64,000 nt of DNA from Nitrosopumilaceae archaeon (GCA_965207375.1 CBDBMG010000002.1:416001-480000); one strand, 5' to 3'; counted from the first letter of the stretch, positions 5,391 to 51,175 are shown. The notes: generated by a model not told the origin, from the letters alone. Program-made: numbers and translations.

Positions 5391-5421
5391 CATAGATAGT
5401 ACGGAGAATATACTATCTATG
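5391..5421. mobile_element. 31-bp P-element-like remnant, probably an excision footprint, in the RT
   Basis: CATAGATAGTA...TACTATCTATG flanked by GCATTGC/GCATAGC (7 bp, 1 mismatch); removing it restores DIRNAYRVVPVHP. Confidence 0.75.
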
Positions 5422-5766
5422 GCATAGCGTATGTCAATCTTAATTAGAAGTGCCCCAGTCCCGTAATTGACTATCCCTTGAGTTGCGTCCTCCACCGTAG
5501 CATAGGAAAGGGAACACATAGTCTCCTGTATTCCATCGTTAATGCTGCCCTCTTCTTGGGAGGACATGTCCACGATGAGCCTCCACTTTCCTGGGGTGCT
5601 CTTTGGTATTACCCGAGGTATTACCCCAAACCGGCTAATGTGCACAAATGGAAATTCCTCGATGCTTAATGGACCCACAACTCTGCCTGCTCTGTATTCT
5701 GATTCTTGGTACTGTGTGATGACTTGTGGGTTATCCATAGCTGATGTCATATTCCTTCTTTAAGAC

Positions 5767-6789
5767 CTTTAACGAAAAAATCGGTCCGCCGTCAAAACTG
5801 GTTCCCCCGGACCGATTTTGGCTGTCAAAACTGGTCCCACTTGCCAATTTTGGTCCCCCGTGAAAACGTGGATTTACAACAATTTGGCTATGCATGGCCT
5901 ACCTGCTCTGATTGTCATTGTTGTTATAGGCCTTATATACTAGCTATACACCATGCACGACTGATTTAGTCTCGCGAGCCAGACCTTTTTCTTAACGCAC
6001 GATAAAAAGGAAGGCGCGCGTTAAGAAAAGGGCTTGGCTCGCGAGACCGCAGGTGATAGGACTGATTGGCTGTCCATGCCAAACATGTCAAAGTTAGCTG
6101 ATAGGTTTTAGCTTTTTCGCTTCATTCTTGGCAGCTGATAGCTATTCAGTTTATATAGTTACAGTACTCAAATTGCATGAAGCTACGTAGCTAGCTACAC
6201 AGATAGTTATAGATTCTATACATCTATGCTATAGCTACATTATTACTGCTTAGAATGCAAAGTAAAAAGGTAAATAGTGAGCTGGCTACGCGAGTTTGCC
6301 AGAAATGTATGGACTTTAATCGTAATATCAGAAACTAGACTATAGTCACGCTATCATCCTTCTAGTATGATAGTACCTTATGATAGACGATAGCCATACT
6401 GTAGTGGTTTGGCTGTCTGTCCATCCGTTGTGGCAGCAGAATCGAAACCGCGCTATATAACGATCAGGAAGCAAGCGCGTCGATATAGGCTAGCTCTCGA
6501 TCTATATGTATATATTACTGAGCTGATGTACGTACTAATTAGCTTTATAGCCTTGGTCGTGGCTAACATAAATCACTATGCAGCATCCAATGATGTAGAT
6601 TGTAGCTATAGCTAGCTAAAACTGTCACTTTAGTGGGGACAAATTTTGGCAAAAGGGGACCAATTTTGGCTGCCAAAATCAGTCCGTCGGACCAATTTTG
6701 GCAGCAAAAAATTGTCAGGGGGACCAGTTTTTCTGCCAAAATCGGTCCGGCCGGACCTATTTTAGGGAGGACCGATTTTGGTGTGACAG
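5767..6789. mobile_element. ~1 kb MITE inserted in the Ngaro RT
   Basis: Imperfect TIR CT..AAAATCGGTCC / GGACCGATTTTGGTGTGACAG with many subterminal GGACC(A/G)ATTTT repeats. The TSD is AC (2 bp) or AGACC (5 bp); both restore the same RT sequence. Confidence 0.8.
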
Positions 6790-7217
6790 ACCAACACTGA
6801 CATCTATAGTCGAAACCGACGCGAAATCCCTCCCGTATCCCATTAACAATATATTGTCGAAATTTTTGATCCAGATATGCACTCAGTCCTGTGTCCCATT
6901 CCTGTCATCTAAGGGGGGAGGTGTCTACCTGGAGGGATTGACTTAGACCAATAGGTTCTAACGGACGACATCTCTCTAGGTGGAGCAGATCCTCCATGTA
7001 TCGATATAAGCTTGAAAGGGGGCAATATGTCCCGTAAGTTCCATCCATGCATGCATCTGATCATATTCGCGAGGGAAGGCGCTCGGCTTACTGGGCCCGC
7101 TACTTCGGCTGTAGCTATTCCCTAAATCCCGCTTCCCATGAGATACATTATTAATCATAGATTAATGTTCAACAAACAAAACGAAAATTGTCCTATGGCC
7201 TGCTAGAATTATATGAT

Positions 7218-8183
7218 CTAACTGTAGCTATAGCTATACTGCTGCAGCTCAATAGGGTCTGTACTTGTGTGTGAGCCTTCCAGCTTGTTACGGTCCTCTG
7301 GGCTGGTGTCCATTTCGGGGGTAGGGGCCTGAGGAGTGGTTGTTAACATGCTGACGGCCCTGACGGGGGCAACGTGTCGCTGGATGTGGTCCTGCACAGA
7401 TGCTGCAGACGTGCGTGTGTCGACAGTACGGAATGTACACTCCTCTCTATTCCATTTATTACATACTTCCCCTGAGTGTCGGATGGGGCCTCGTGGGCGA
7501 GGAGTAACTTGTGTCAACTGTCGTTCCATGTTTTCAATGCGTCTCTCCAGTGAAATGTCCGGTGATAATCCTTCACTACAGTCCTGCGTCTCATGGGTAG
7601 CAGCCCCGAATACTCCACACCTCAATGGGTTTCGGGGAGCTCCGGTAAAACACCTGGCATAGCTTGTGGTGTTTATCACTGACCATTTGGTATCTCTCCT
7701 AAGAGCTGCATGTTTGCGAAACAATGTATCGTAGTTCAGCCAGGCCGTGCCTGCATACTCTTGGTTTACCCTCACAATCATAGACATGTAAGCCATGAAC
7801 TCCGGAATTACGGTTGGTGATTGCACTCCTCGGATACTAACATAAACCCCAAAACATTGGAGCCATGTAAATATGTCTACCACCCTTCTTCCACATCTCT
7901 TCTTATATTCCGCTTCTCCTTCTTCCTTTGGTGTCCACAACTCCGGGAGCAGCTCGCTCATCTCCACAAACTCTCCGGCCCTAATCTTCCTCACGAGCTT
8001 TGAAGGAACCCGGGGAAGGCCCTCCCCAATATACACTCCTTCAGTGGATGAACTTGCGTGGTCCCCCAGGGCTAAAGGTGAGTCCCCTGGAGCTGAAGGT
8101 GAGTCCACTGCTTGTGTGAGTAGTGTTGTTAGGTCCCTTCCATGTACCGGCTGGTCCGAGCCCGTTGGTGCGGCGAAGTGCAA
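7218..8183 (-). pseudogene. Ngaro gag-like ORF with C-terminal Cys/His knuckles
   Basis: WLQCFGVYVS...AYMSMIVRVNQEYAGTAWLNYDTLFRKHAA block typical of Ngaro ORF1; CNKWNREEC knuckle, frameshifted near the end. Confidence 0.75.
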
Positions 8184-9254
8184 CGGGACGTTACGAATGT
8201 CCTTCCCCGGGGGTAGTTTGTCCCCCGTGTTACCTGTAGCAACAAGATACTAGTAACCCTTCTTGCCTCACTATAGCTAGCTACGCATCCGCCGATGGTT
8301 TCTCGCGACACCCTTACATTACGCCAGACGAGCGACCCTGTCGAGAGCTCTCGGGGACGGCCTCGTGCTCGCGAGAACCGCATTCTCGCCTGACCCGGGG
8401 GTCCCAGCCATGTGGCCCGCTTCGCTTGAGTGTTTCCGCGAACGTGACAACACCATCACGGTGCGGGTGTTAGTTGGGCCTTCCCCTAGCAGGGGAAAAA
8501 AAGCCCGGTCATCTCAGCGACAGTGTCCCTGAGAGAAAAGACCGAAACCCTACCTGGACGAGATGTTCCGGGATCGTCTGCTTTCGCCTGTACTTCCCTC
8601 TGGGCTTCCGCTGCCTCCTTCATTAACTCCGCCACCGTGTCCGATCCCTCAGTTCTGAGAGTGGGACCACCCGATCGATGGGATCTTTCTGTTTGTCCTT
8701 GCTGGACGTTTCGCCACTCGGGGATGCCATTCACGTTTCCAGTTAGCTTCTACACTAAACTCGAAAGGCATGTGTTCGCACCTCTACTGCGCATTAAATT
8801 ATTACACGTGTCGTGTTTCTCCGTACTCGAGTCCAATAGATGCACCCCATGACCACAACTGGCTGTACGCGTGCGATGCATTTGTGAGCGAATTAACTTG
8901 GCTTAACCGTGCCTGTTAATCTTCACTTAATATCAGCTTATCGGTACAAAAATAAGTAAATAATCAGTTAACAGGAAATATGAATATACGCATATCAATG
9001 CAATAGATATGGCGAAATATAGGGGGAAGGATTTTTTAAAAATTATGTAGAAACCAGGTTTTGAAGGTTTTTAGCTAGTTAGCTAGTTAGCTAGCTATAT
9101 CTCACCATGCAACTTCAGCTGGAGCCAATAGCTAGTTTTACATTTTACTTTGCACTTAATTTGTCTGTACAAACAGATGGACTGATAAAAATATACAACA
9201 TAGGTACGTAACAGGCATGTACAACAATATAGGGTTTTTAAGTTTTCGTGGGTT

Positions 9255-11949
9255 TTAAAGTACCCATGCAAACAGAGTTTAGGTGATGGAATAGCATATG
9301 ATTTTCATGGTTTTTATGGTTTTTATGGTTTTCTAGTGTTTTAAGGTACCCAAGCAAACAGTTGCATGGTTAGATGATGGAATAGCATATGGTTTTTATG
9401 GTTATTATGGTTAGGTGATGGAATAGCATATGGTTTTAATGGTTTTTATGGTTTTTATGGTTTTCTGGGGTTTTAAAGTACCCAAGCAAACAGTTGCATG
9501 GTTAGGTGATGGAATAGCATATGGTTTTTATGGTTTTTATGGTTTTTATGGTTTTCTACTGTTTTAAGGTACCCAAGCAAACAGTTGCATGGTCAGGTGA
9601 TGGAATAGCATATGGTTTTAATGGTTTTTATGGTTTTTATGGTTTTCTGGGGTTTTAAAGTACCCAAGCAAACAGTTGCATGGTTAGGTGATGGAATAGC
9701 ATATGGTTTTTATGGTTTTAATGGTTTTTATGGTTTTCTAGTGTTTTAAGGTACCCAAGCAAACAGTTGCATGGTTAGATGATGGAATAGCATATGGTTT
9801 TAATGGTTTTTATGGTTTTCTAGTGTTTTAAGGTACCCAAGCAAACAGTTGCATGGTTAGATGATGGAATAGCATATGGTTTTTATGGTTATTATGGTTA
9901 GGTGATGGAATAGCATATGGTTTTAATGGTTTTTATGGTTTTTATGGTTTTCTGGGGTTTTAAAGTACCCAAGCAAAAGTTGCATGGTTAGGTGATGGAA
10001 TAGCATATGGTTTTAATGGTTTTTATGGTTTTTATTGTTTTCTACTGTTTAAAGGTACCCAAGCAAACAGTTGCATGGTTAGGTGATGGAATAGCTAGCA
10101 TATGGTTTTAATGGTTTTAATGGTTTTTATGGTTTTCTACTGTTTTAAGGTACCCAAGCAAACAGTTGCATGGTTAGGTGATGGAATAGCTTATGGTTTT
10201 AATGGTTTTCATGGTTTTTATGGTTTTCTACTGTTTTAAGGTACCCAAGCAAACAGTTGCATGGTTAGGTGATGGAATAGCTTATGGTTTTAATGGTTTT
10301 AATGGTTTTTATGGTTTTCTACTGTTTTAAGGTACCCAAGCAAACAGTTGCATGGTTAGGTGATGGAATAGCATATGGTTTTCATGGTTTTTATGGTTTT
10401 CTAGTGTTTTAAGGTACCCAAGCAAACAGTTGCATGGTTAGGTGATGGAATAGCATATGGTTTTAATGGTTTTTATGGTTTTCTACTGTTTTAAGGTACC
10501 CAAGCAAACAGTTGCATGGTTAGGTGATGGAATAGCTTATGGTTTTAATGGTTTTTATGGTTTTTATGGTTTTCTAGTGTTTTAAGGTACCCAAGCAAAC
10601 AGTTGCATGGTTAGATGATGGAATAGCATATGGTTTTTATGGTTATTATGGTTAGGTGATGGAATAGCATATGGTTTTAATGGTTTTTATGGTTTTTATG
10701 GTTTTCTACTGTTTTAAGGTACCCAAGCAAACAGTTGCATGGTTAGGTGATGGAATAGCATATGGTTTTAATGGTTTTTATGGTTTTCTAGTGTTTTAAG
10801 GTACCCAAGCAAACAGTTGCATGGTTAGATGATGGAATAGCATATGGTTTTAATGGTTTTTATGGTTTTCTAGTGTTTTAAGGTACCCAAGCAAACAGTT
10901 GCATGGTTAGATGATGGAATAGCATATGGTTTTTATGGTTATTATGGTTAGGTGATGGAATAGCATATGGTTTTAATGGTTTTTATGGTTTTTATGGTTT
11001 TCTGGGGTTTTAAAGTACCCAAGCAAACAGTTGCATGGTTAGGTGATGGAATAGCATATGGTTTTAATGGTTTTTATGGTTTTTATGGTTTTCTACTGTT
11101 TTAAGGTACCCAAGCAAACAGTTGCATGGTTAGGTGATGGAATAGCTAGCATATGGTTTTAATGGTTTTAATGGTTTTTATGGTTTTCTACTGTTTTAAG
11201 GTACCCAAGCAAACAGTTGCATGGTTAGGTGATGGAATAGCTTATGGTTTTAATGGTTTTCATGGTTTTATGGTTTTCTACTGTTTTAAGGTACCCAAGC
11301 AAACAGTTGCATGGTTAGGTGATGGAATAGCATATGGTTTTCATGGTTTTTATGGTTTTCTAGTGTTTTAAGGTACCCAAGCAAACAGTTGCATGGTTAG
11401 GTGATGGAATAGCTAGCATATGGTTTTAATGGTTTTAATGGTTTTTATGGTTTTCTACTGTTTTAATGTACCCAAGCAAACAGTTGCATGGTTAGGTGAT
11501 GGAATAGCTTATGGTTTTAATGGTTTTTATGGTTTTTATTGTTTTCTACTGTTTTAAGGTACCCAAGCAAACAGTTGCATGGTTAGGTGATGGAATAGCT
11601 TATGGTTTTAATGGTTTTTATGGTTTTTATGGTTTTCTACTGTTTTAAGGTTCCCAAGCAAACAGTTGCATGGTTAGTAGATGGAATAGCATATGGTTTT
11701 TATGGTTTTTATGGTTTTCTAGTGTTTTAAGGTACCCAAGCAAACAGTTGCATGGTTAGGTGATGGAATAGCATATGGTTTTAATGGTTTTTATGGTTTT
11801 TATGGTTTTCTAGTGTTTTAAGGTACCCAAGCAAACAGTTGCATAGTTAGGTGATGGAATAGCATATGGTTTTAATGGTTTTTATGGTTTTTATGGCTTT
11901 CTGGTGTTTTAAGGTACCCAAGCAAACAATTGCATGGTTAGGTGATGGA
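9255..11949 (+). repeat. Left subterminal tandem array, roughly 30 units of ~80-90 bp
   Basis: Unit AAGGTACCCAAGCAAACAGTTGCATGGTTAGGTGATGGAATAGCAT(ATGGTTTTW)2-3..CTACTGTTTT, with higher-order duplications. Confidence 0.97.
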
Positions 11950-12659
11950 TTTTATCGAAACATTCCCCCTATAATTTGCCACATATGGTCTGGGTGCGCT
12001 ACATTTCATAAGCGCTGAAATTATACTATCACGTAATCATGATGGTGTCTACATTAAACTCCAATATATGACCAGCGTCTGCGAACTGAATGGATGCACT
12101 ACAATCGATGTTAAAGGACAGAAAAGCAATAAAAGTGACACACACACGAGTAAATATAGAAAAGCGCGTTACTACCGGATCTATAGCTATACAAAGTGCG
12201 TCCGGTTACCGGACATATAGCCACTTCATTATTTAATTAGCTAAATACTATAGGAATTATAAGTTTTTAACCAATTAGCTAGTTATGTATGGACAGTATG
12301 GATTAAGGGAATGGGAGGTGGGTGCAACCAAGTACGTAGCATATAGCTATATCCTTGTTTCATAGCTATTAAGCTAATTATTTAATTTATCAGCTATAGC
12401 TATACCTGTATAATATTGCATGGGCCAGCAAAAATGGACCAATTAAGTGAGCACATGTAATTGATAATCATGTTTCTGTCTTGGTCTAAACACATTTCCC
12501 AGATTGCTAAGAAAGCTTAGTTAAAGCCTTCCTTCAGAACAACTTTAACTCCTGCCCAATACCTGTTAAAAGTCAGTTATAGCTATATATACAACTTTGG
12601 TAAGATAAATTTTAGAGTTCTGCTGTACTGTCTGGTCACCGCATACTGCTTCAGGCATA

Positions 12660-13112: not shown

Positions 13113-13877
13113 ATAAAATTTGACAATGTTTTTCACAACTTACAGAATGTAAATCATTTAATGTGCTATATACAAACCAAGATACTTGATGTTTTGTGGT
13201 TATAACGTTAAGTGCATTTAAATTTTGTGCCCATGCACTTGGTCCATTTTCACTGGCCTGTTACTATTATATAGGATTAGATATACATACGTATGTATAT
13301 AACCAAGGTCACAATGCACTTCATAATAAAGATAGCTATGTAAGTATGGTTACTATGGTTACATAATACAGTTATTCAAATACCTGCATGAGTCCACTCC
13401 AGATACAGTAACAAATTTAAGTCTTGATACATAATCATAATAATAATAATAATACTATTGTGTTCTGACAGCCACATATAGGCTATATACATAGCTAATC
13501 AGTGTGTATAGTGTATAGTAAAATTAATACAGAATAAATATTAGCCAGAAGTTCTATCAATTAATCAATTTAGTCTTCAAATACATAGCTGACAATGAAA
13601 ATCCTTTTTAGCTGCCTTCTTCGTAACTTTTACACATCGCTGATGAAACCACTGATTACATCTCGTGCATTCTATCCACCATGTTCCCACTCGTTCTCTC
13701 TTTAGTGTGCACACTTGTTTGGGACACTTACGTATCTTTATTTCCTGTCCATTCCTTTGTTGTGCTTGCTAGTACTGGCACAGGCTTAATAATAGCAATG
13801 CTCTGTGATCTGAGGGATACAATATTGGTGTAGTCTGGATCATTATCTGCAAGTGGTCATGAAAGCACATAGGTAAA

Positions 13878-14342
13878 TGTGACTGTCTCTGCAAAAACCC
13901 TCCATGTTTGCATAAATATATTATGATGATATGCCTTTACAAAATAACTATAAATTCCAGATTGGGGATCCAACATGATTCCAAATAATGTATATAACTG
14001 CCAATTTTTGATTCACAGTCTTGCAAATTTTTGTATTTCTCCATATACTAATATTCACATGATATGGATTGGTAAATAGGAATCAATGAAATCAAATCAT
14101 AAATCAATAAATCAAGCCAAAATAAAAATGATTCCAAATCTCATACAAAAATCTATGGTGTCAGACCCCTCATTCCTGATACTTGCATCAGTTGTTAATT
14201 GCTCTGCATAAAATGTTTGTCACTAATATGCAAATTTTTGTAATGTTACAAGAAACTGTACCAGAGTTATGAAATTTTAAATTTCTAAAGATGGGCCAAA
14301 ATTTGCATGCTAACATGGAGGGTTTTTGCAGAACCAGTCACA
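13878..14342. mobile_element. TGTGAC-terminated MITE
   Basis: TGTGACTGTCTCTGCAAAAACCC / GGGTTTTTGCAGAACCAGTCACA; AA flanks. Confidence 0.75.
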
Positions 14343-14399
14343 AAAATGCATACTTGTATTTTAGCTATAGTTATACATATGTATAGTTATGTGCATGGT

Positions 14400-15075
14400 A
14401 CCATTTGAAATGTTTTCACTAGTAGAACATAGCACAACTGTGGATGCAGGTGGTAAAGGAACCGGAGAAATAGTTTTGTCCTTTGATGGTATCATGATAT
14501 CAGATAAATTAAGTGATATCGATGAACTGGAGGTCTCTAGCAGTGAGTCTTCATTGACTTGATCTGTGGATGCATACACAGGTATACAGGATGATCACTG
14601 ATGAATTGATACGTATGTGTAGCTACTTATGATTATAGAACTGAAACATACCACTTGAAATGTTTTCACATGTAGGAGGTGTCTCAACTAAAAAGGCAGG
14701 TGGTGGAGGAATCGGAGATATCATGATATCAGATAAATTAAGTGATGAATTGGAGGTCTCTAACAGTGGGTCTTCATTGACTTGATCTGTAGATGCATAT
14801 ACACACTGGTATAGAGGATAATCGTTGATGAATCGATATGTATATAATATATATGTGTGTGTGCTACTTATAATTATAAAACTGAAACATACCATTTGAA
14901 ATGTCTTCACATGTAGAAAGTGTCTCAACTATAGATGTGGGTTGTGAAGGAACTGGAGAATTTGTTTTTTCATTTGATGGTATCATGATATCAGATAAAT
15001 TAAGTGATGAACTGGAAGTCTCTAACAGTGGGTCTTGATCTGTAGATGCATGCAGAGAATATCTACTGATGTCTT
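14400..15075 (-). repeat. Three tandem copies of a ~230-bp exon-intron unit in the ATPase-PHD linker
   Basis: Repeated peptide DPLLETSxSSLNLSDIMI...TCENISxG, each copy followed by a GT donor. Confidence 0.85.
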
Positions 15076-18053
15076 GGTTATTTGTGTACGGATATACATA
15101 ACAAAGATGATGGCAGTAAATAGTTACTTATATAGACAAGCAAGAATGATACATTAATTTACCTGCAATCCATGGTGATGTTGATGACATAGGTGACAGG
15201 GATGGTGAAGATATAGGAGAATGGTCTGAAACTTTAAGATTCAAAAGTAAAATAGTGAATTCGTACATGTAGGTAGCTATATATGTATGTGTGTCTCTGC
15301 CATTCCTAAAGGATGGATGCAATGACACTGTTCTAAAGCCCTCTGAAAATGGAAAACAGAGGAAATGCATAACCATCCCTCACAAGGCTATCTCCACTGA
15401 TGTTATTAGAAAGTTGGTTGATAGAGGTAAGTCTGCTAGTGCTGCTATCCATATGCTTATACGTAAATATACATACATAAGCCCAGATATTGCCCCCAAC
15501 TTCTTTAACAGCTTTCTTAAATTTAGTTTCATCCAAGGTGGAACAATAAGTCCTGATCATTGGTAAATATATGGCCACTGATCATGATGCACATGCTTGA
15601 TTGGTTTTATTGAGAACTTCAGGACGAAGAAATCTTAGTATCTGTCAAACATTTTAAAGCTATAATTATACATACATTGTATAAGATAAAAAATTAATAC
15701 CTCACAAACTTCTAAATCTTCAGTATCATATAGCAATTGCTCAAGAACACACTCTATTGTGTTGTGAGTGCACTGTAGCAAACTGGTGACTTCTGGGGCC
15801 CATTTTTCCAAGAAAAATCTTTTTATCATAGTGAATGTTGTTACCTCTGGTAGTGCAATGATATTGCACAGCTGTAAGTGTATTCAAAAATTATAACACA
15901 ATTGCAGAATCAATTTTCAAATTTTACTCACCTCCTTACCAATTCCTAACAAAAGGGCATAGCTCTTTTGAATTCTAAAATCAGCATCTGGCAATGCGTC
16001 ATATACCAGAGGTAACAAATCTTCATTAATACACTTTTGGAATTCTTCACTCATGATTGTTTCACCTGCTTGTTTCAGCAACTCTTCCTTTTCTCGTTGG
16101 TTTACTGCAACCTGTCCCTTGAAAAAAGGGACATGTATTAGTCGTGCTGCATTCCTAAAAGACATGTATACACAAAATTATGGGTCAACTGTTTTCAGAA
16201 CACATGCTGTATGAACATACCTGGAACTTTCAGCAAATGCTTTGTTCGCAGTCAATATAATCGTTGTACGTGGACAGTTGCTTCCTCCACTCACTGTGGA
16301 TAGTGCTGCTCCATTGAAAAATTGTACTGACAAAGCTTCAATGTTGTTTAGACTGTTAATGTCATCTACCCCAATTGGTATGGTCGTAATTGATGCTCGT
16401 GCAACCAAGGAATTTGGTGATGATTTCCCCACTCGGAAATGTGCAGCTGCTGCTCCACACAGGCTCAATGCTGCCCGGAGTGATGTTGTCTTTCCTGCAA
16501 ATATATAATTTCAAATTACCCAACTGTATTAATTGCCTATGTAGATAATACAACTATGGCCAGCTGTTAGTAACTAACCAGTTCCGGGAGTTTCACTGTA
16601 TGCTAGTACCAGCGGACATTCGTCTTGTATTGACATAATTGTCTCAAAGTGCATAGCCATGCATACTCCACTAATGATCTGATAAAAGCTTAGAAAATTC
16701 TGTTGCAGGCATTCATTGGCTGCGATCATAAGATTCTGGATACCCTAAAACATGACAAGTGATACTATTATTATTGCTCTACAGTACTATTAGCTAGCTA
16801 TATACGTAGCTACTTAATTGTATACAAATAATATGAAGCTAGTAGAAGAACTGAAAATCAATACACGTGCACCATGGATGATAGTGTTTAACCTACGTAC
16901 CATGATTGGTAATTATTGACTCTGCATATGTACTTACATACCTGAATCTGCAGTGGTAGAATAATTGGTAATGGAGCAAGCTTTGTATCATCAGTAACAT
17001 CTTTTCGTAACTGGTATTCACCATACCAATAAAATGGAAAATCTTTGTTGTCTAGTAGCTCTCCCTTGCTGTCGATCTGAATATCTGGTCCCAGCACCCA
17101 CACATCACTTTTTAGTTGCCTGCCTATAGCAGAAACCAGAGTTTTGTTATTAAAACTAGCACTGGTTCGAAAATCGCTGCACTCTTGGAAAATGTATCGT
17201 CCCCATAATGCATCGCTGCATTTAACATGTTGCACTCCTTTTAAAGATTTGCTTGCAGCTTTAGTAAAACTGCGAATAGTGCAAGCTTCGTCATTAGTGA
17301 TGAAGCATTCCCTGTGGGAAAAATATAATTATTTAAATGTGTTGCAATTATACCCATGCAGTACACCTATCACTTTAAGGTCTAGTGTAACCAATCAAAC
17401 TTGCATGATGCATTTTTAGAGCCAACACAAGGCAACAACAAGAGATCTAGTTATAGCTGTTAGATGATTAACTATTGATATAATTATGTACTGCTGGTAT
17501 AAGCTCTGAAGATCAAAGAAAAATTGCTCATGACACAAATGAAAATATTTTTCACTTTGGTATTCTATTGATCACACCTATATATGTGTATCCAGTGAAC
17601 TCTGGCAATCAAAGGAAATTGCTCTAACGCCTTATCATCAACGGTAAAATGTACAATTGATCACACTTGCATTTGGGACTCAATCACCTAAAATGAATTG
17701 AAAAAATGGTCGCAGCTTGACTGCATTGGAGTTTAAGAAGCTCAGGATGGGTAAACAAGTCACCCGCATCATTGCACGGCTGACATGCATGCATTGATGG
17801 ATCAAATCAAATCAAAATTGCCACATGCATCTAGTATATAGCTACGTAAATTAGCGAACTCACTTTTCTACTCCAGAGGTCATTGTTATTTTGTACAGAA
17901 ATCCATCTAATTGCATACAGGTTTCTTCCGGCGAGGATACAGCACTAACCACTTGAAAGCAAAGTTAGTGTACTGCAAAAACTCTCCTCTTTTGATCTCT
18001 CCAATTTGTCTATTAACAGTAACTAGTGACCTATGAGCAGCTGTTCGAGGCAT

Positions 18054-18228
18054 TGTCTGAAGATTTCAATCTAGGCTCAACTCTTTCGCTGTGATGCAGT
18101 TCTCAGACTACTACGCACCATTTAGTTTTCTCTCAACGTGCAAACCAAAGCGCGCGCATGCGTACGTAAACGTGGTTACACAGAGAAAATCCGGCTCAGC
18201 TAATGCGATAATTTTTACTCAGTTTAAA
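18054..18228. promoter_or_regulatory. Putative bidirectional promoter
   Basis: 175 bp between divergent ATGs (18053 minus, 18229 plus); central CpG-rich GCGCGCGCATGCGT (18150-18163) resembles the NRF-1 palindrome. Confidence 0.55.
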
Positions 18229-19720
18229 ATGCCACGTGGCAAGAAACGAAGGTTGGCAGCGGCATTAGATAGTTTATGTGATGCAAATCGTAGTTCAGGG
18301 GATGCCTTAGTAGAAGAAGATATTGTTGATACTACTCGAGATGTTACCTTCACGCCCCCGGTGAGCCAGGATGAAGATTTCGAGCCGCAATTGGAAGTGA
18401 CCGAAATGCATTGTGATCTAAGATGGGTAACAGTTTTGACTGCACAGGCACTAAACTTAGTACCGACATCTTTTTTGTCGCGACGCCAACATTATATCAC
18501 CAACATTGTCAGTCATTGCATAAAAAAGGATTTTACTTCAGAATAAATGGCTGTATTAATACAGAGCGCTGAAGGAGTTTTTGAGAATATCACTTATCTC
18601 CAAACGCCTAAGAGTGAATTATTATGGAAAGTAACTTTTGCTACTCAGGTGCCTCATAGCTACTGCATTTTTGGGACCTCCTACTACATTATGTTTAGAA
18701 TGCAGTGGAAATCTTTCAATTCATAATGATCCTTCTTCAGTTGTTGTATTTGGATTCCATGGACCAACTCCTGCTCTTAAAATCACTCTTAGATGTGATA
18801 CTCGTATGATTAACTACAGGTAAAATAGTTCGGTATAAATTATAGCTAGTTAGTTAGTTATATAGAGCTATCTGTATGTATCTATTACTACAGATATGAT
18901 CAGTATGGTGGAGATATTAAAGGTGGATACTGTTATTATGATAGCCCAAGACCATATGTGAAAGCATCACGCAGTGTATTCATTTGTAGAGATCTTTATT
19001 GCAACTTGGCAGCTGCTGCGTATGTTGTATTACTATTAATCAGTTATATTATCAATAAACATTGTAGCCATCATACTTGGAGTTCTTTTGAAGGTGCTGC
19101 AGAAAGCTACAATGAAGGAGTTAGGGAGTCATTGACTGGGTCACTGCTTTTAAATTATACAAAGAGATTCTTTACTATGTGTCCCCTGAGAAATGGTAAG
19201 TATAGCTATGTAGAAGTACATGCACATAACCAGTACTATTACATGTGTATACTAGTTAACACTGCATCCATCAACTGTGATGAATCCACTGACATGAATA
19301 TGATTACTCATGAACTTCATCGTAAATCTGTAGCAGAAGCATTCTGGAATGCTGAAATAGAAGATGAATTACGAGAGATAGGTCAAATTGGATACATATT
19401 TTCATCAGTGGATTCAAGAGAGAAGCTAATGGATTCCATTGATGAAGAGAGGGCTAAACGTCCTTATGCACACAATGACTGCACAGATGAGTGTAAGAAA
19501 AGAGGTGAGTCTGCAGATCAAGATCATATAGATATACAGCTATTACTCACTTCATAGTTAGCTAGACAACCTAGCTACTGCTCCTGTTTGTTTGAACACT
19601 TTTCAAACATCAATAGAAAAATAGAACGAGTTCATAAACAGTTCTGTCACTGCATTGAACATGCATGCAGCTATATGGTTTAACTAAGTTCAAGAGAATC
19701 GATCTTCACACTTATATAAT

Positions 19721-20363
19721 TGTGATTAGATTTGACAAAAGCCAGCTTCCACACACATAACAGCAAGACACACTAGCTTTGCACCATCAAACAATAGCTG
19801 TACACATTAACTAACAGTTCAGACAGATTTTGGTTCTGAAAGTTATATAATTACCCAGGCTGCTTTTGCTGAGGTTTGTTTCTTAGCCTTGTCAGATGTC
19901 CACGAGTACTTGGGTGGTTATTAAATGGCTCCATCTTCCCTGCACAAGCAGACAGCTGGCTGTATATCGCCATACAATGGCCTGGTAAGGTTGCTCATGG
20001 ATTTAGCTGCTTTGTGTAATATGTAGAGCTGAAAATGGCATCGATTGAAGCCAAATTGTTTCCATTTGGTTTTTCAGTTTTAGCCTGCCACTTCATGGCT
20101 CCCTGCCCACTCATAGGAGTGCTATAGTGATATTGGCTAGCTACACCAGTAATAAAACTATCTAAAATGGTGCATGGGTTATTATATTCCTAGTTATATC
20201 CGTTCAACAGTTAGTCCATAGATATAGATTATGAATAGCTATAGAATCGTGGCAAATTGCCTGCAAGCACCTGTTTTCCTTTACAAGATATAATGCTTCG
20301 AATAGGTGTTTCTAAATATTTATAATTGTGTGTGGAAGCCAGCTTCTCTCAAATCCAGTCACA
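19721..20363. mobile_element. TGTGAC-class MITE
   Basis: Imperfect ~35-bp TIR ending GTCACA; AT flanks. Confidence 0.7.
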
Positions 20364-20971
20364 ATTGTGCTTTAATTTTGAGTACGTATGTCACTGGCAA
20401 GGGATGCAGAACCATGCAGGTGGCTATATCTAGGAAGGCTGGAGCTCCTTATATTTGAAATACAGGTACATACCCTTGCATGAACAGGGAGTGCTATTGG
20501 TATGTTTATAATCACTGCATCATACAATTACGTACCTCAGCTTAATATTAGCTATAGTTACAGCCATGAATGCTTGTATGCATGCACTTGAGCCTCAAAG
20601 TTATGAACTATACAGATACATACGTAGCTATTAGCTGCTCAGTAAAAGCAGACCCATCAACTTTCGGCAGTGGTACTCTGGTAATCAGTTAGTTTATTGA
20701 TGGAGTGTAGCTGTAGCTACAAAAACTATTCTTACCCATTATGTGCATATGTGGTGGCTTTTGGCAAATCTGGTCACATAAATGTACAAGGTTTACTTCT
20801 GAATCACATGTCACTGAATAGTTCAAGGGGTTATCAACTCTTAAATGGGTTATAGATTTCAAAATTTCACTGATAATTAAGAATTTCATTGCTCACATTG
20901 CATTCCTAGATGTTCCTTTTGCATTTCTTCATAAATGCTACATAGCCTTTTGAATATAAGTACATGCATGC

Positions 20972-22106
<1,135 letters not shown>

Positions 22107-22122
22107 TATATATATATATACA

Positions 22123-23043
22123 CTAGAATAATAAAAAATTAAAAATTTAAAAAGTAAGTAGGGATTGAACTTTGGATTCAATAGTGCTACAAAAAGTAAG
22201 GAAACAAGGAATAAGATTTTGGGATGAGAGAACATTCTGGCATGAGATAATTTATAAAAGTTTAATCCCTATTTTTGGCTCACTTCATTCAGTAGGTTTG
22301 CCAAAAGTAGGGATTAAACTTTTATAAATTATCTCATGCCAGAATGTTCTCTCGTCCCAAAATCTTATTCCTTGTTTCCTTACTTTTTGTAGCACTATTG
22401 AATCCAAAGTTCAATCCCTACTTACTTTTTAAATTTTTAATTTTTTATCATTCTAGTTTGTTAACTTTTTATACATGCTAAGCATTCAATAATCTTTTAG
22501 CAGGCGCACAAAATGTTACAGGCGCTTACGTAATAATTATGCTTGTTTACAGGCGCTTGTTAACAATGCGCTGACATGGCAAAGCAGCTGTATGATAGCA
22601 AATAACACTCGAAAAACAGCAAAAGCTATTTGTCCAAGGCTATAATCTCGAAGTTCACGATGTAATAAAGTACACGCGAAAACATCGTGCCACTGTAACT
22701 AATTATATCACGTGCAAGCCAGGTTTTTGTGTGACGCAATAAGCAGAAGCCGTTACAGGCTATCGTCACCTTCGGTGAAATTCGCACCTTGCTAAGGAAT
22801 AAAGAAGAACAAGGAAAGGAATGAAGGATAAAGGGAATCGCCATGGCGCAGTGGGTAAATCGTCTTCGGAATAAGATTTTCGTAAATCCGCCGCCATTAC
22901 CTTTATTGTGTGAAATTTCTGGAGCCCTACACCTAGCGCAACCCGGTCTTACGGCAGGCTGGCTGTCAGGCTGGCAGGCTGTCAGACGAAATACAATTGA
23001 ATTTCGAAATTTTCAAAGTTGGCTGAAATTTTCAAAGTTGGCT
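22123..23043 (-). mobile_element. Family A copy 2, inverted and 5'-truncated
   Basis: Reverse complement of ~21190-22106, separated from copy 1 by a (TA)n spacer. Confidence 0.8.
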
Positions 23044-23733
23044 ATATATATATATATATGATATTATATGCATATAATTATTATAGGTACATGTTAAGCC
23101 ATCAAGTTATAATTATTAAAAATAATGTGATCACTTCTCATACAGGATGTGGGCATTTATATTCTTTTGATGGAAATCGGAAGCTAGTCTATCCTGTGTG
23201 CATGTTTAGAGTCCCTAAAGAAGTGACAGGTTTTGCCCATCATCTACGCTATGTTGATACTTGTCCTAATGAACCTGTGTGTGGCCATGCATTCTGTGAA
23301 GTGCATTGTAATGAAGCTGAAGAAAAGAAAATTCCAACAAAATTACGTGACTACCTGAGATACTGTGGCATTTTGAAAGGTACGTACGTAGCTAGCTATA
23401 TATTATAAATGATAGCTATTAGCTCATTGCATTTACCTACTTGTAGCTACGTACATAGCTACATATGTATTATGTAATAACATATAGCTAGCACCAATGT
23501 TACAATGTTTTATTCACAGCTTAGCTACAGTACAGTGTATAGCTTACTACGTAGCTTTCCACCAGATTTCTGTAATCAGTGCACCACTAGCTTCATCTAG
23601 GCAGCCTACTTTCAAAGATAAAAATTTTGAGGATTTTGGGGGACGTTTACAGGACCTCAAAAATATCTTCAAAATTGTAGGATCAGCTAGTCCTAGCTAG
23701 CTATATTGTTTACCACTCGCTTATTCTCGTATA

Positions 23734-24367
23734 TGTGACTGGATTTGCCAAAACCCGACATAATGTCGCAAGAACTGAAATCCAATTTATAGCTTAACAT
23801 GAAAGCCACAACTCGAGCTCCGGCACTATCCAGACACACCAATGACAGGGCTACAGATGGCCAGGTCTGCTTTCACAGGCAGGATTTTGCTGGCCCTGTA
23901 AATGAATGACGGTCCACTACAGGGTACATGGTGCCATTGGGGGGCACTAATAAGGCTGTATGGGGTGTCAAACTGCTGCCAGTGACCGTCTTGGCCTGAC
24001 ATGTTGACTGTGCATGGCTGTTTCTGTGTTTATTGAAGGCACAACGATCCTGTCTCTGTTCCTATGGATGGTATGGTCCGCCTTCTGCTCCCCACCCACC
24101 CCCATCGCCACCCCCTATAAACTAAATCCATGATATTGGTGGAGTTCAAAAAAATTGTCTCAAAATCCAGCAGTATTAGCTAGCTATATATAGGTGGTTG
24201 AATTAGTTATAAAGCACTAGCTATAAGATTACTCTACTTATGCTGTGAGTCAGCTGGCGTCTATGCAGTCAGGCATCAAGGAGCTACAGTAGCTTGAATA
24301 TTTCAAAGTGGTATTTCTCGAAATATGAAATATGCAGTTATGTTGGGTTTTTGCAAATCAGGTCACA
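23734..24367. mobile_element. TGTGAC-terminated MITE
   Basis: TGTGACTGGATTTGCCAAAACCC / GGGTTTTTGCAAATCAGGTCACA; TA flanks. Confidence 0.75.
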
Positions 24368-25037
24368 TATTTCTTATCGATCCTTTATACAATAGTCATG
24401 TGTATATATAATAAATTGTATTAATTATGTATATAATTGATCACACATTATGGTTTACTAACATATATATAGATCCAGACTGTGACTCAAGTGCTAATCA
24501 TGAAGATTTAAGTAAGCTTACAGCTGCTGAAGAAAACATGAGTAATAATGATGGAGCAAGAAATGCTTCAGATTGTCAAGGTTGAAAACCTTAAAATCTG
24601 TATTGACATGACAGTATTGTGTGATATATAAAGTTTGTGCTACAATAATCATCCTCCAATTAAGTAACGTATCATACATAACTGGAAAAATGTGACTGTC
24701 TGCAAAATACTCCAAATTTGCACTTGCTGTACTTCAAAAATATCATACTGAAAGAGAAAATGTCTCACATAGGTAGCTAGCTAGAAGTGGGGCAATAAAA
24801 CAAATTTCAATTTGTGTGAGAGCATGTATAGTATGGCTGAGCCAGTCACATATTATGCTATTCATTGCGTTGGCAGTAAAATTACTGTAGCTATAATATA
24901 GCTATAAGCACTGAAATTGGAGATGCATGCATGCATGGTGTTGATAATGAAGTTTTTGCATGACATACTTTAGCAGTTTATATTATGCAGGATAAGGATA
25001 TATTTCAGCATTGAAAAATTCACTAAATTACGTTATA

Positions 25038-25627
25038 TGTGACCGTCTCTGCGAAAACCGGCCTAGTTCACACCTGATAGTAATTAGAGAAACACCTGTT
25101 TAAAATTTTTAAATTGAAATAACCAGCTCTTGCTCGTACTAGGCCACTTTTATTTAGTAGAACTGGACTTAGTAATCTATTGAATAAAATACAATTTACC
25201 TTTGAAGTTGTTCCTCGCTTGATTTTAAGCCTTTTCAGATGATTTTTTTAAAGATGTGCATCAATTTTAGCCCAGCATTACAAGGGGGCGGGTGAGGGCG
25301 GGGGGTGGGGAGGGAGGAGGCTAAAGCTCCCCAGGTGAAGACACAAGGTCCTGAGTTGCCCACAGATGGTCCTGACCATACAACCAGGCCGAAGGGACAT
25401 CATTCCGATTCTAGGCCGATAACATCCAATTGGTACGCTCCACAGGTGTCAATGTGTCGGTCATGATTTTACAGCGCTGTAAATCCTCCCCTCCAAAAAG
25501 CAGACCACTTGAGTCTGGCCATCGGAGACGTGCTGTGTGGATAGCTATTGAGTATAGCTATAAGCTGGGGCAAAAAATAAATTAAATTTTTGTGCGAACT
25601 AGGCTGGTTTTTGCAGAGACAGTCACA
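25038..25627. mobile_element. TGTGAC-terminated MITE
   Basis: ~33-bp TIR TGTGACCGTCTCTGCGAAAACCGGCCTAGTTC; TA flanks. Confidence 0.8.
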
Positions 25628-26660
25628 TATTAATTGGATGCAATACATGTATATAATTGTATTATATGTAAGACACGAGTGGGTACATCATAACTAGGAC
25701 ATGTTATATCATCAATATTTTACTACATTTTTAAATAATTATTAGGTACATTATCAGTAATCACATCATACCCACAACTGGGTGCAGAACTAGATAAACA
25801 AAGTGAACTAGATTTTGTGCCAGAGTGCAACAAGGACACTGGCACTAGAAAGCGGATACAGAAATGGAGTCGCGGGCATTTCTTTATCGTTCGTGGAGGT
25901 GGACATATAGATATGTGGCAGCCATTATATCAGTATGTAGCTAATACTTAAATAGTTCCTTTATAGCTTGTGATCTGAGTATAGTAGCTATGTAGTAATA
26001 TTGCAAAGTTCCAGGCAGCCTATATAATTATACGTAGTTAGCTATAGATAGCTACCACTTTGCATTTAGATTTGTGGTAATTAATTAAATGATACCATTT
26101 CTACAAATATAGCTAGTAGCTAAGTAGCAATTGTTTATAGGCTTACAATGCATGTGTACAGTTTGTAGATGGATCTGTATATGTATAGCTACCGCCCTGA
26201 AGTACACATATGTACATGTGTATAATAAATGCATGCTCATGCCTCTGTAAGTTGCAATATATAAAAATTGTTGCATTGTGATCTCAAACAACTGCTCCAC
26301 ACACCAGATTTCTGAACATACGTAGCTATCTAATATGATTGTAGAAGCAATAACTGCATGTGTTTTCTGATACAACCTTAACAATACATGGTGTGTCAGT
26401 AATCATAGTACCTATCTATTTTCACAAAGAAAAATTCACTGAGTATATAGCTATGTTGCTTCATATTTTCAAACTTCTGAGCACAATTATTAGCTATTTG
26501 TTAATTATATAACTCAAGGATAAAAAATTCGAGGATTTTGTGGATGTTTGTATAGCCTCAGTAATATTCTATCCTCAAAATTGTAAGATCAACTAGCTAG
26601 TCCTACTGCTTATACCACTTACTCATTGTTGAAACTTTATCTCTAATAATCCTCAAAATT

Positions 26661-26908
26661 TGTGACCAGAATTTGGAAAATGGTTCCAAATCACACACTT
26701 TTCAGTATATTTATCACTACCACATGAAAAGTATTGCATTCTCAATAATATTTCATAGCACTAGATGGAATTCAATGGTCAAATTACTGAAAGAATGTAA
26801 GAAATACTCTGTAAATACATACACATAAGTAGAAATATCATTAAATACATGCAGAAATACACTGGATTTCATGCATGGTTTGGAACTGTTTTCCAAAATT
26901 CTGTCACA
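26661..26908. mobile_element. TGTGAC-terminated MITE
   Basis: TGTGACCAGAATTTGGAAAATGGTTCCAAA / TTTGGAACTGTTTTCCAAAATTCTGTCACA; TT flanks. Confidence 0.75.
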
Positions 26909-28460
26909 TTTTATATTCTCGAAAACAAGTTGCCCTACGGTGTTTCACCATTTACAACTATTATCAATGCATTTATTATGAACACACACCATATAAGTGA
27001 ATCCCACTCAATATCTGCATCAATTATATACCTAAAACCATACCAGTGTTATAGCACTAAGTGCATGTTACAAGATCATGTGACTGGATCATATGACTAG
27101 ATTTTATCAAAATGTAGCTATAGGGATAACTTTTGCGGTTTTGCTATATAACCTATAGTTTTGCCAAAGAAAAACAAAGCAGCTATTCTAGGAAAAACTT
27201 TCACATTTTATTGAAAATCTGCAAAAACCACAAAAGTTTTAATTTGTACTGCGAAACTTTTGTCATTTATGGTGTGATGATCTAGTAGTATAAAATTAAT
27301 AACTTATCAGTATAACCAAGAGCTACGTATATTAACACTATTTTGTTTCATCTAGATCTGAAGGGCCTGCACAGGTATTTTTGATAATCCTTGCATGGAT
27401 GGTTGCAGCATTGGGAAAACTTTCCAGGGATGAACGAAAGAAGATCACTGTATCCTATGACAATATGTGCCACATTGACTCCCTGCATGTAGCCAGAAGA
27501 CCTCTGCCTCTACCTGGAAACTTAAGTCATCTTTGGTTAGATGTGAACAAAATAATCGATTCTTTACACATTAGAAATCACCGAGACAAAAAGTGCCATG
27601 AAAAATATCACCCAAGTCAAGTTAAAGACAGCAATGAAACTTACAATACCATGAGTTGCGAACAGACGTTTGCCTGGATTTCCAGGTTTAAAAAGATAGT
27701 CTGTTCCATGGGAAAGAGGCATCATCATTTCTACCTTCACAGAATGGTGAAGCGAAGAAATAAATATATAGCATTTTGCTATAAGCATAACAAGAACCCA
27801 GTACAACCAAAACTACATTAATATAGCTAATTATGTGCTGACTAAGATATACATGTGTACTAGTTATAATCAAACATGTTAATCATCATACTCATATGAT
27901 TGATTATCTATTTGTGGCTAGGTAATTAATGTGCTAGTTAATGTTTTCATGAATATTGGTATACTATAGCTACGTATGCCGTGAAATAAAATCTTAAAAA
28001 TGCATGTGTATATGTACATGTGTGAGTGCATAGAAAATATTAATACAGGTGTATGTACAATATACTTTTTATATCCTGTTGAAACACATATGATACATTA
28101 TAGCTATACAACTAACTAGCCTATGACTAAATTTATAATTATCGTGTATGTAGCTAGTTCCAATTGCCATATTCACACTTTCAAGCAGGCACAAGGCTGT
28201 ATGGAATGATCTTTGAATCATCTAAGTGTACCTGAAAGCTAACGTTGATACTGCATGGGCAGCCAAGCTTGCAATTGGTGAGGTGTCATCTAGACTGAAC
28301 TGGTCATTTGTCACCATATCATATCAGTGTGTATCAGCCTTAAATAACTACCAGCTAATGCTAAAGTATGATAGTGGAAAGATTGACTTATTTTGATGAT
28401 TGTATGGCTGTTGATTCATCAAACTGTTCTCATCATTATATAGTAATGCAATACATACTT

Positions 28461-29015
28461 ACTGTATGCTTGGGTACCTTAAAACAGTAGAAAACCATAA
28501 AAACCATAAAAACCATTAAAACCATATGCTATTCCATCACCTGACCATGCAACTGTTTGCTTGGGTACCTTAAAACAGTAGAAAACCATAAAAACCATAA
28601 AAACCATAAAAACCATATGCTATTCCATCACCTAACCATGCAACTGTTTGCTTGGGTACTTTAAAACCCCAGAAAACCATAAAAACCATAAAAACCATTA
28701 AAACCATATGCTATTCCATCACCTAACCATAATAACCATAAAAACCATATGCTATTCCATCATCTAACCATGCAACTGTTTGCTTGGGTACCTTAAAACA
28801 CTAGAAAACCATAAAAACCATAAAAACCATTAAAACCATATGCTATTCCATCACCTAACCATAATAACCATAAAAGCCATATGCTATTCCATCATCTAAC
28901 CATGCAACTGTTTGCTTGGGTACCTTAAAACACTAGAAAACCATAAAAACCATAAAAACCATGAAAACCATATGCTATTCCATCACCTAAACTCTGTTTG
29001 CATGGGTACTTTAAA
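28461..29015 (-). repeat. Right subterminal tandem array (inverted copy, ~5-6 units)
   Basis: Reverse complement of the same unit, including the rare GGTCAGG and CTGGGG variants found in the outermost left units. Confidence 0.97.
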
Positions 29016-29685
29016 ACCCACGAAAACTTAAAAACCCTATATTGTTGTACATGCCTGTTACGTACCTATGTTGTATATTTTTATCAGTCCATCTGTTTGT
29101 ACAGACAAATTAAGTGCAAAGTAAAATGTAAAACTAGCTATTGGCTCCAGCTGAAGTTGCATGGTGAGATATAGCTAGCTAACTAGCTAACTAGCTAAAA
29201 ACCTTCAAAACCTGGTTCCTCAAATACTTTTCAATGCCTATTATGCCCAAAATTATGCTGGCATAATCGGGACATCCCTACTACTTGCATCATGTATGGT
29301 CCAACTTTAAATTCATAATATTGGATGTGCAGATAAGATCTGTTTGTGCAGGCCCAGTCAACTTTCTACTTGTAATGTATGTACGTAGCTATATATATAG
29401 TACGGGATATTTAATATTAGCTAATGAATGGAAATGCACATCCTGAACACAACGTAGCTATGTTAGTTGGGTTATTATTCAAAATTAATGAGTCCAAAAT
29501 GCCTTGGCCATATTAGCTACACATGTACAATGCTGCTTATGATAACATGGTACACAGGATAGCTATAATTATGCACTGTTAAATGTTCTAGTTTGATATG
29601 ACTACTATGCAATTTTGTACATCATACCGTCATGTTGTACAAGTGAATGGATTTAGAGCATAATAACTGCCAGATATACGTAATA

Positions 29686-49982: not shown

Positions 49983-50539
49983 ATGTCATAATACACTCTC
50001 TCACACAGATATACGTACATACAAATTTGGGTACCAGAATAGGGGGTCATTGGGGGCATTGGGGGCATTTGCCCCATAGTTTTTAATGAAATTTCCATAG
50101 AAACTATTTTCAATAAAAATGTGCATTTTGCTACATCTTTTTGGTTCCCACACTTAGCTAAATAGCTTCAGGCATTCCTGCACTGAACAAATAATATATA
50201 CATACACAACACACGCACATATAGCTATACTTGTAATATAGCTACATGCACATACTTGCACATAGCTACGTATACATAAATACACATGTGCACACTTATA
50301 ATAATAATATTATTATATACGTAGCTGGCTATTTATATATTGTGTTTTCTTACATACCTATAGTGTTGTTATACATAGTTCCTCTAGCTACTGCTGTAAT
50401 GAACGTGTGCATAAATTTCTATTGAATATTTTTATTCAAAGATTGTGATTACATACATTGTGGTTTCATGCAGGTGTGAGTATGATAATTATGTGATAGA
50501 ACAAGTTTATGGCTAGCTACGTAGTTAGTAGTTTTCTGC

Positions 50540-51175
<636 letters not shown>

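Follow-up and report, generated by a model that had tools for sequence, protein, structure and literature searches.

A stretch of DNA of 64,000 nucleotides (GCA_965207375.1, CBDBMG010000002.1:416001-480000; hereafter the window, with all positions counted from its first letter) contains a short minus-strand reading frame for a PHD finger downstream of an ATPase gene, and the question that it raises is whether this frame belongs to the ATPase gene, what kind of genetic element the gene is part of, and what a chromatin-reading domain may do there. The first-pass annotation, made from the sequence, had taken the PHD finger for the unannotated last exon of the ATPase gene, tethered to the ATPase by a long Ser/Pro linker and able to guide insertion to marked chromatin, after the example of the PHD with which RAG2 targets a DDE recombinase. 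The analysis described here indicates that the open reading frame is probably the terminal exon of an accessory gene of a KDZ transposon, which encodes a helicase-like ATPase, a linker and a PHD finger, and which is divergently oriented to the transposase gene.

The minus-strand translation of 13577-13846 ends in KCPKQVCTLKRERVGTWWIECTRCNQWFHQRCVKVTKKAAKKDFHCQLCI followed by a stop codon and agrees letter for letter with the peptide proposed at first pass, while the stop-to-stop open reading frame (13577-13768, minus strand) is 63 aa long. Its zinc-ligand pattern is C-x4-C-x13-C-x2-C-x4-H-x2-C-x13-C-x2-C, which is C4HC3 with the spacing of a PHD finger, and it matches the Pfam family PF00628 (PHD) with 27.5 bits (E 3.2e-6) against a cut-off of 24 (26.8 bits in an assembly-wide scan). 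PF00628 matches are so sparse in the 4.3 Mb of the assembly that were scanned (8 of the 12 matches listed are above the cut-off, roughly one per 500 kb) that a PHD finger at exactly 13577-13768 is not expected by chance. The frame is on the same strand as the ATPase gene, downstream of it and collinear with it, and a homologous sponge protein, described below, likewise terminates in a PHD finger.

The ATPase gene was modelled from splice sites and homology as 12 exons that run from 18053 to 13577 on the minus strand (Table 1). With the alternative allelic state at each of four sites (see below), the model is 2385 nt (794 codons) long and open from the ATG to the stop codon of the PHD finger, without an internal stop, and 11 of 11 introns are GT-AG. 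Phase 1 is common to both ends of exons 8 to 11, to the end of exon 7 and to the acceptor at 13774; splicing of the PHD exon onto the ATPase exons is predicted by this model. Judging from the reading frames, the coding exon most likely starts at 13774, at a CAG acceptor, in an allele 4 nt shorter than that of the window, and not at the first codon of the open reading frame: the phase-1 CAG acceptor (13775/13774) reads into the PHD finger only in the allele without 13729-13732, and the sole acceptor that would hold the PHD frame in the window allele is a weak AAG before 13764. From N to C terminus, the protein is predicted to comprise a DUF927-type N-domain, a P-loop helicase-like ATPase, a helical domain, a disordered linker and the PHD finger. 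The linker, which had been described at first pass as long and rich in Ser and Pro, proves to be encoded by one short exon and three duplicated exons and to be 169 aa long, 74 of its residues being Ser, Pro or Thr; the duplicates (exons 9 to 11) have peptides 71% identical to the first, and all are in frame in the model. Over the repeat in the last intron, the summed contig depth of four public sequencing runs is 5,000-49,000, as against 20-340 on either side of it, and all four runs have loose ends at both of its borders.

Table 1. Features of the transposon and of its two genes, in window coordinates.
Feature	Position	Strand	Basis or remark
Left terminal inverted repeat and subterminal array	9036..11950		About 29 copies of a 91-bp unit; exact terminus approximate
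Exon 12, PHD finger and stop codon	13577..13774	-	Acceptor model, Pfam, alignment
High-copy repeat inside last intron	13877..14342		465 bp; contig depth
Exon 11, Ser/Pro/Thr linker	14402..14563	-	162 nt, phase-1/phase-1
Exon 10, Ser/Pro/Thr linker	14652..14786	-	135 nt, phase-1/phase-1
Exon 9, Ser/Pro/Thr linker	14893..15039	-	147 nt, phase-1/phase-1
Exon 8, Ser/Pro exon (DHSPISSPSLSPMSSTSPWIA)	15163..15225	-	63 nt, phase-1/phase-1
Exon 7, 3' part (SLPFLKDG...KLVDR)	15294..15426	+ in window	GT donor 15427-15428
Exon 7, 5' part	15480..15641	-	Contains 6-nt insertion in window
Exon 6, helical region C-terminal to ATPase	15701..15871	-	tblastn collinear with P0010; splice sites
Exon 5, helical region C-terminal to ATPase	15932..16154	-	tblastn collinear with P0010; splice sites
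Exon 4, P-loop ATPase core	16221..16494	-	Homology and splice sites
Exon 3, P-loop ATPase core	16579..16744	-	Homology and splice sites
Exon 2, N-terminal domain	16942..17311	-	tblastn to P0010 residues 48-204, E 1.6e-23
Exon 1	17864..18053	-	Start codon 18053
Spacer between divergent start codons	18054..18228		175 bp; presumed shared promoter region
KDZ (Kyakuja-Dileera-Zisupton) transposase gene, multi-exon	18229..27821	+	Pfam PF18758
Right terminal inverted repeat	28461..29234		91/132-bp subrepeats as in left arm

Contigs of the four public runs (X1, X2, X4 and X5, from two studies) were aligned to 13300-18300, with introns and exons covered alike, and they reveal that the window allele is broken four times and that the alternative state at each site is found in contigs of other individuals. 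In exon 1, the window and X2 are without one base at 17952/17953, a frameshift, and the base is present in X1, X4 and X5. A 6-nt insertion (15579-15584) that contains an in-frame TGA is shared by the window and X1 and absent from X2, X4 and X5. The third lesion is the inversion of 186 bp (15294-15479) in the window relative to the gene: residues 510-551 of the sponge homologue map to the plus strand (15294-15422, tblastn), a 5367-nt contig of X4 crosses the segment in the opposite orientation, X5 has one junction at full depth, X1 and X2 have both arrangements, and joints of the 'opposite strands' type occur at the segment in X1, X2, X4 and X5; once the segment is re-inverted, exon 7 reads through. 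The fourth consists of 4 nt (13729-13732, minus strand), present in the window, X1 and X2, whose absence from X4 and X5 is supported at full depth; immediately 5' of the first Cys codon of the PHD finger, these bases put the finger out of frame with the CAG acceptor. These four lesions (a first stop at codon 48, then the TGA, the inversion, and the frameshift before the PHD finger) leave the allele of the window unable to produce the protein. At each lesion, a reading that matches the sponge protein is restored by the alternative state, and since the contigs of X4 bear all four intact states, an apparently functional allele therefore exists in the population. An unusual genetic code or small introns were considered as explanations of the TGA and the frameshifts and were rejected, other individuals being simply without the extra bases.

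A HMMER search with the P-loop exon returned 90 matches at E <= 0.001, of which 89 are no longer than 430 aa and mostly single-exon pieces. The one long match, P0010 (864 aa), and its isoform P0091 (912 aa) belong to one RefSeq gene model of Amphimedon queenslandica ('PREDICTED: uncharacterized protein LOC109588352'), and consist of an N-domain, a P-loop, a helical region, about ten tandem 23-residue repeats and a C-terminal PHD finger, in that order. P0010 is collinear on the window from 17325 to 13634 (tblastn), and its PHD finger matches that of the window in a pairwise BLASTP comparison (E 4e-12), with a common CPK-x2-C start. The ATPase-PHD fusion is thus found in one other gene only, in two isoforms of a computational RefSeq model. 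The expectation that homologous genes would also carry the finger holds for this sponge gene and fails for a sponge paralogue (P0092, 654 aa), which has the repeats but no PHD finger, and for the two more distant ATPase loci of the assembly, which have no PF00628 match within 30 kb. Word-based protein searches, each saturated at about 8,000 candidates, returned no match for the N-domain exon among longer proteins, only P0010 and its isoform for P0010, and four proteins for an alignment of 64 sequences; because of this saturation, the scarcity of full-length relatives is weak evidence. A single-exon search of metagenome contigs found two short contigs with 46% identity over 39 residues. DUF927-like ATPase exons occur at three loci only in 4.3 Mb of the assembly (profile search of six-frame open reading frames), and all three adjoin a transposase-like gene, that of the window locus being KDZ.

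The two distant loci (L008 and L009) are 1-6 kb from a different transposase-like gene, with OTU and CXC domains, for which Atlas neighbours with scores below 0.9 hint, as a lead only, at Mutator/DUF6729-type transposases.

The PHD open reading frame is very probably the last exon of the ATPase gene, as the first-pass annotation had it, on the evidence of the open 794-codon model and of the PHD-terminated sponge homologue. That it might instead be a remnant of some other gene or element, outside the ATPase transcript and at this place by chance, could be argued from the high-copy repeat that separates the PHD finger from exon 11, and from the good CAG acceptor being out of frame in the window allele; such an origin is very improbable, given that the sponge homologue has the same terminal PHD finger with the same CPK-x2-C start and both conserved Trp residues, that the frame of the alternative allele remains open through a phase-matched acceptor, and that a chance PHD match is expected so rarely in this assembly.

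The best PDB sequence match of the PHD finger is the third PHD finger of KDM5B (2ma5, E 2.4e-7), followed by fingers of PHF23, Alfin-like, PHF13, PHF2, KDM5A (PHD3), CFP1, BPTF, PHF8 and Spp1, all of which we take to be H3K4me3 readers. The transposon finger shares with KDM5B PHD3 the C-P-x3-C first knuckle, the NQWFHQ motif and both Trp residues, with which the second W of TWWIEC and the W of QWFH align, and the sponge finger retains both. The two Trp that had been assigned to cage positions at first pass are therefore the ones that align with KDM5B; in KDM5A PHD3, according to a passage of PMC9814790, the trimethyl-lysine cage is formed by two Trp only, ten residues apart. The spacing in the transposon finger is 9 rather than 10, because its second knuckle is C-x2-C and not C-x3-C as in KDM5A and KDM5B PHD3, and those fingers are part of a demethylase, whereas this one is carried by a predicted transposon helicase. 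A single-sequence AlphaFold model of the lone PHD exon is poor (mean pLDDT 67, all strands), for which reason the cage geometry is derived from sequence alignment alone; in the AlphaFold model of the sponge protein, the finger has a pLDDT of 67-81. The alignment supports a KDM5-PHD3-like finger with two Trp at cage positions, and this resemblance makes it fairly likely that the PHD finger reads H3K4me3.

The gene is enclosed, together with a KDZ transposase gene, in a DNA transposon of the KDZ superfamily of about 20.2 kb (approximately 9036-29234), a size that includes both genes because inverted repeats bracket them both. The partnership with a DDE-type transposase that had been suggested by analogy at first pass thus has a counterpart in the window, with both genes in one transposon. 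Inverted repeats I1-I25 pair 9035-11949 with 28461-29234 at 94-99% complementarity over up to 510 nt; both arms are composed of 91/132-bp subrepeats (TRF over 9439-11949: period 91, 28.9 copies), and the terminal alignment of the two arms begins near 9036/29234. The plus-strand transposase exons start with an ATG at 18229, head-to-head with the ATG of the ATPase-PHD gene and 175 bp from it. PF18758 (KDZ) matches a 161-aa open reading frame (27336-27821, plus strand) with 35.9 bits against a cut-off of 26.6, over profile positions 105-217 only, so that this frame represents the second half of the KDZ domain, and the introns of the transposase gene contain nested repeats (about 20.7-23.1 kb and 24.9-25.7 kb). 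Parts of PMC12730594 describe KDZ elements as DNA transposons of the cut-and-paste type, with inverted repeats and duplications of 8 bp, and Zisupton elements are described in parts of PMC9297572 and PMC12730594 as multi-exonic DNA transposons that bear inverted repeats. A clean target-site duplication was not found at the ends of this element; the sole direct repeat of 8-9 bp (AAAATTATG) sits away from the ends of the inverted-repeat alignment, the Zisupton duplication being of 8 bp. Inspection of the open reading frames of the element by eye revealed no primase or polymerase gene.

Searches of 4.3 Mb of the assembly found no second copy of the KDZ/ATPase-PHD element, and none of the four other KDZ loci there has a DUF927-like ATPase adjoining it. 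Both results are compatible with a host or domesticated ATPase-PHD gene that has an ordinary role in chromatin and happens to lie beside a decayed KDZ transposase gene, as are the presence of the locus in four of four runs from two studies and the annotation of the sponge homologue as an ordinary multi-isoform gene. Such a host gene is improbable, however: a single long inverted-repeat pair encloses both of the closely spaced, head-to-head genes, the four disabling lesions of the window haplotype ill fit a gene that the host needs, and the other two of the three DUF927-like ATPase loci have a transposase-like gene, of a type other than KDZ, 1-6 kb away.

For the ATPase of the transposon gene, the only Pfam lead is PF06048 (DUF927), which the window exon matches with 16.6 bits and P0010 with 20.3, both below the cut-off of 22.6. 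The ESM Atlas neighbours of the first 560 residues of the sponge protein are bacterial DUF927 clusters (0.97), and a profile built from 64 relatives finds its best PDB match in the SaPIbov1 helicase (8tch, E 0.008). When the AlphaFold model of P0010 was searched with Foldseek, the sponge homologue being the sole basis of the fold similarity, the top match was the SCCmec helicase Cch (5dgk, E 3.4e-5, probability 0.99), with 8tch in third place. The confident parts of that model are limited to residues of about 80-310 and 370-430, its linker is disordered, and the similarity to Cch is distant (17% identity). The Walker A motif (GTGKTT) straddles the junction of exons 3 and 4 and is followed by a Walker-B-like motif (IGVDDI), in the VDD of which the second Asp is invariant and the first nearly invariant among 64 aligned sequences. 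A wide VIA-align search with the 864-aa model was uninformative, yielding only helical-bundle matches with Z below 7 and weak MCM rows with Z of 5.1-5.3. The sequence and model comparisons suggest that the ATPase is eukaryotic kin, at some distance, to the Cch/Rep helicases that bacterial mobile islands encode. No regulator of the MuB, TnsC or IstB type was among the PDB profile matches or the best 49 Foldseek matches listed.

The protein of the gene gave no match to Kelch repeats, its N-terminal part being a P-loop ATPase, and kinship with RAG2 was rejected on that ground and on that of no homology to RAG2 being seen.

The resemblance of the ATPase to replication helicases brings up the alternative that the helicase-PHD protein unwinds, replicates or processes the excised or donor element, like Cch and SaPI Rep, without a part in the choice of target. 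The PHD finger would then tether the protein to active chromatin, for example at the element's own H3K4me3-marked divergent promoter, and the 91-bp subterminal arrays would be candidate binding sites of the helicase-PHD protein. Favourable to this alternative are the identity of the closest solved relatives (the SCCmec Cch and SaPIbov1 Rep helicases), the lack of MuB/TnsC/IstB-type regulators among the best 49 Foldseek matches listed, the long 91-bp repeat arrays at both ends of the element, and the surveyed papers that mention DUF927, which by their titles and the openings of their abstracts concern bacterial, archaeal or viral mobile elements, or bacterial genomics. It is nevertheless unlikely, given the distance of the similarity to Cch, the DUF927 scores below the Pfam cut-off and the want of a visible primase or polymerase gene, and given that KDZ elements are cut-and-paste transposons, as stated in parts of PMC12730594.

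For an accessory protein of a KDZ transposon, the function that the first-pass annotation had suggested can be formulated as a sequence of steps. The PHD finger would dock the ATPase on H3K4me3 nucleosomes, and the docked ATPase would deliver the transposition machinery to the chromatin of active promoters, with a bias in target choice as the most likely effect, in a coupling that would resemble the way in which the PHD finger of RAG2 links RAG1 to H3K4me3. That docking on H3K4me3 steers insertion is proposed tentatively, by analogy. More speculative still is the possibility that a KDZ transposon recruited a self-loading, MCM-like helicase of the bacterial-mobile-element type, fused to an H3K4me3-reading PHD finger, as a second and independent invention of the RAG1/RAG2 logic, in which the ATP-driven partner would either mark promoter nucleosomes as targets or replicate the excised element on active chromatin.

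To our knowledge, target-selecting accessory ATPases are typical of transposons in bacteria (Mu, Tn7 and IS21) and are hardly known in eukaryotic DNA transposons, and readers of histone marks that guide recombination are likewise known to us mainly from RAG2 and the integrases of retroelements. A KDZ transposon with a Cch/Rep-like helicase tipped by a KDM5-type PHD finger would link these two themes; with two genes, one reader domain and a pair of Trp residues to mutate, it would be small and tractable enough for asking how a DNA transposon senses the state of chromatin. DUF927-type helicases furthermore occur in animal genomes as predicted spliced genes beside transposases, at all three such loci in 4.3 Mb of the assembly. 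A literature search, the scope of which extended to neither the founding Zisupton/KDZ papers nor Repbase, found no gene pair of a KDZ/Zisupton transposase and an ATPase, DUF927 or helicase-PHD protein.

With the Zisupton and other KDZ transposons, as described in parts of PMC9297572 and PMC12730594, this element shares the KDZ domain, a multi-exon transposase gene and terminal inverted repeats, and the accessory genes described for KDZ elements in those sources are TET/JBP dioxygenases in fungi; the 8-bp target duplication of Zisupton was not found at this element. SCCmec Cch and SaPI Rep (DUF927, PF06048), to which the ATPase is closest in both structure and sequence, are also encoded by mobile elements, but they are bacterial, have neither a PHD finger nor a Ser/Pro linker, and serve replication of the excised island, whereas the gene in the window is eukaryotic, is predicted to be spliced, lies inside a DDE transposon, and scores below the Pfam cut-off. 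MuB, TnsC and IstB are similar in being accessory ATPases encoded beside a DDE transposase, and the logic proposed here, a target-bound ATPase that would recruit the transposase, is theirs; no homology to them was detected, however, and they read DNA or other proteins, not histone marks. The Ty3/gypsy chromoviruses have a chromodomain integrase, in which a reader of histone marks biases integration. They resemble this element in combining a mobile-element protein with such a reader, the reading by the PHD finger being predicted here, but theirs is a chromodomain for a heterochromatin mark fused to a retrotransposon integrase, whereas the PHD finger is on a separate ATPase of a DNA transposon.

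The closest parallel in architecture may be RAG2, which reads H3K4me3 through a C-terminal PHD finger and is the separately encoded partner of the DDE-type recombinase RAG1, the two genes being adjacent and convergently transcribed both in the RAG locus and in ProtoRAG. Like RAG1-RAG2, Transib and ProtoRAG, the element in the window would pair a DDE-type enzyme with a separately encoded partner that has a C-terminal PHD finger, if the analogy extends to function. The gene pair is divergent here and convergent there, the partner is a P-loop helicase-like ATPase and not a Kelch-repeat protein as RAG2 is, and the transposase is of the KDZ type and not of the Transib/RAG1 type; with these differences, the element would be a natural parallel for how RAG acquired its coupling to H3K4me3.

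The ATPase-PHD gene contains a 186-bp segment (window 15294-15479), carrying part of exon 7, that is present in both orientations in X1 and X2, contig sets of public sequencing runs from other individuals, and solely in the orientation opposite to that of the window in a third such set, X4. The edges of the segment are marked by an imperfect 11-nt inverted repeat (15278-15288 and 15469-15479). Its two orientations may be a simple polymorphism, or the segment may flip recurrently. The same gene also carries, in its last intron, an insertion of a very high-copy short repeat (13877-14342), over which the summed contig depth reaches at most approximately 49,000, versus 20-340 in the flanks. An intron of the KDZ transposase gene contains a foldback structure (20700-23100), the inverted arms of which (21258-21954 and 22300-22985) are 96-97% identical; the arm repeat occurs 30-90 times in the 4.3 Mb of the assembly searched, with an additional copy at window 31340-31814.

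Other features of the window are listed in the table. The domains of the Ty3/gypsy-type interior (zinc knuckle, aspartic protease, reverse transcriptase, RNase H and integrase) are spread over several frames. The GC-richer block, judged by eye only, looks like a retroelement with a tyrosine-recombinase-like part; three of its ORFs were searched against Pfam, with no match at E <= 0.001. The His/Thr and Cys/Val ORFs of the microsatellite block are spurious products of its (CA/TG)n-rich sequence.

Features of the window and two other ATPase loci of the assembly
Feature	Position	Strand	Basis
hAT-type transposase ORF, 755 aa, intact-looking	window 32340-34607	-	DUF4371, 75.9 bits; hAT dimerisation domain, 34 bits
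Ty3/gypsy-type LTR retrotransposon interior	window 38487-42393	+	domain content
GC-richer block with long ORFs	window 3424-8249	-	46-50% G+C
Long (CA/TG)n-rich microsatellite block	window 50449-51233		
L008, DUF927-like ATPase gene, more distant	G000:C4:877000-896999		
L009, DUF927-like ATPase gene, more distant	G000:C3:520000-539999		

Gly/Ser-rich microsatellite-like arrays flank the ATPase and transposase-like locus at L008 and L009. The L008 and L009 ATPases are 26-28% identical to the homologous proteins of the sponge Amphimedon queenslandica. At a distance of 1-6 kb, each gene has a multi-exon, transposase-like neighbour encoding the motifs DHTFK, VDDCC and DIFH together with OTU-protease and CXC domains, which suggests that DUF927-like ATPases are paired with transposases more widely.
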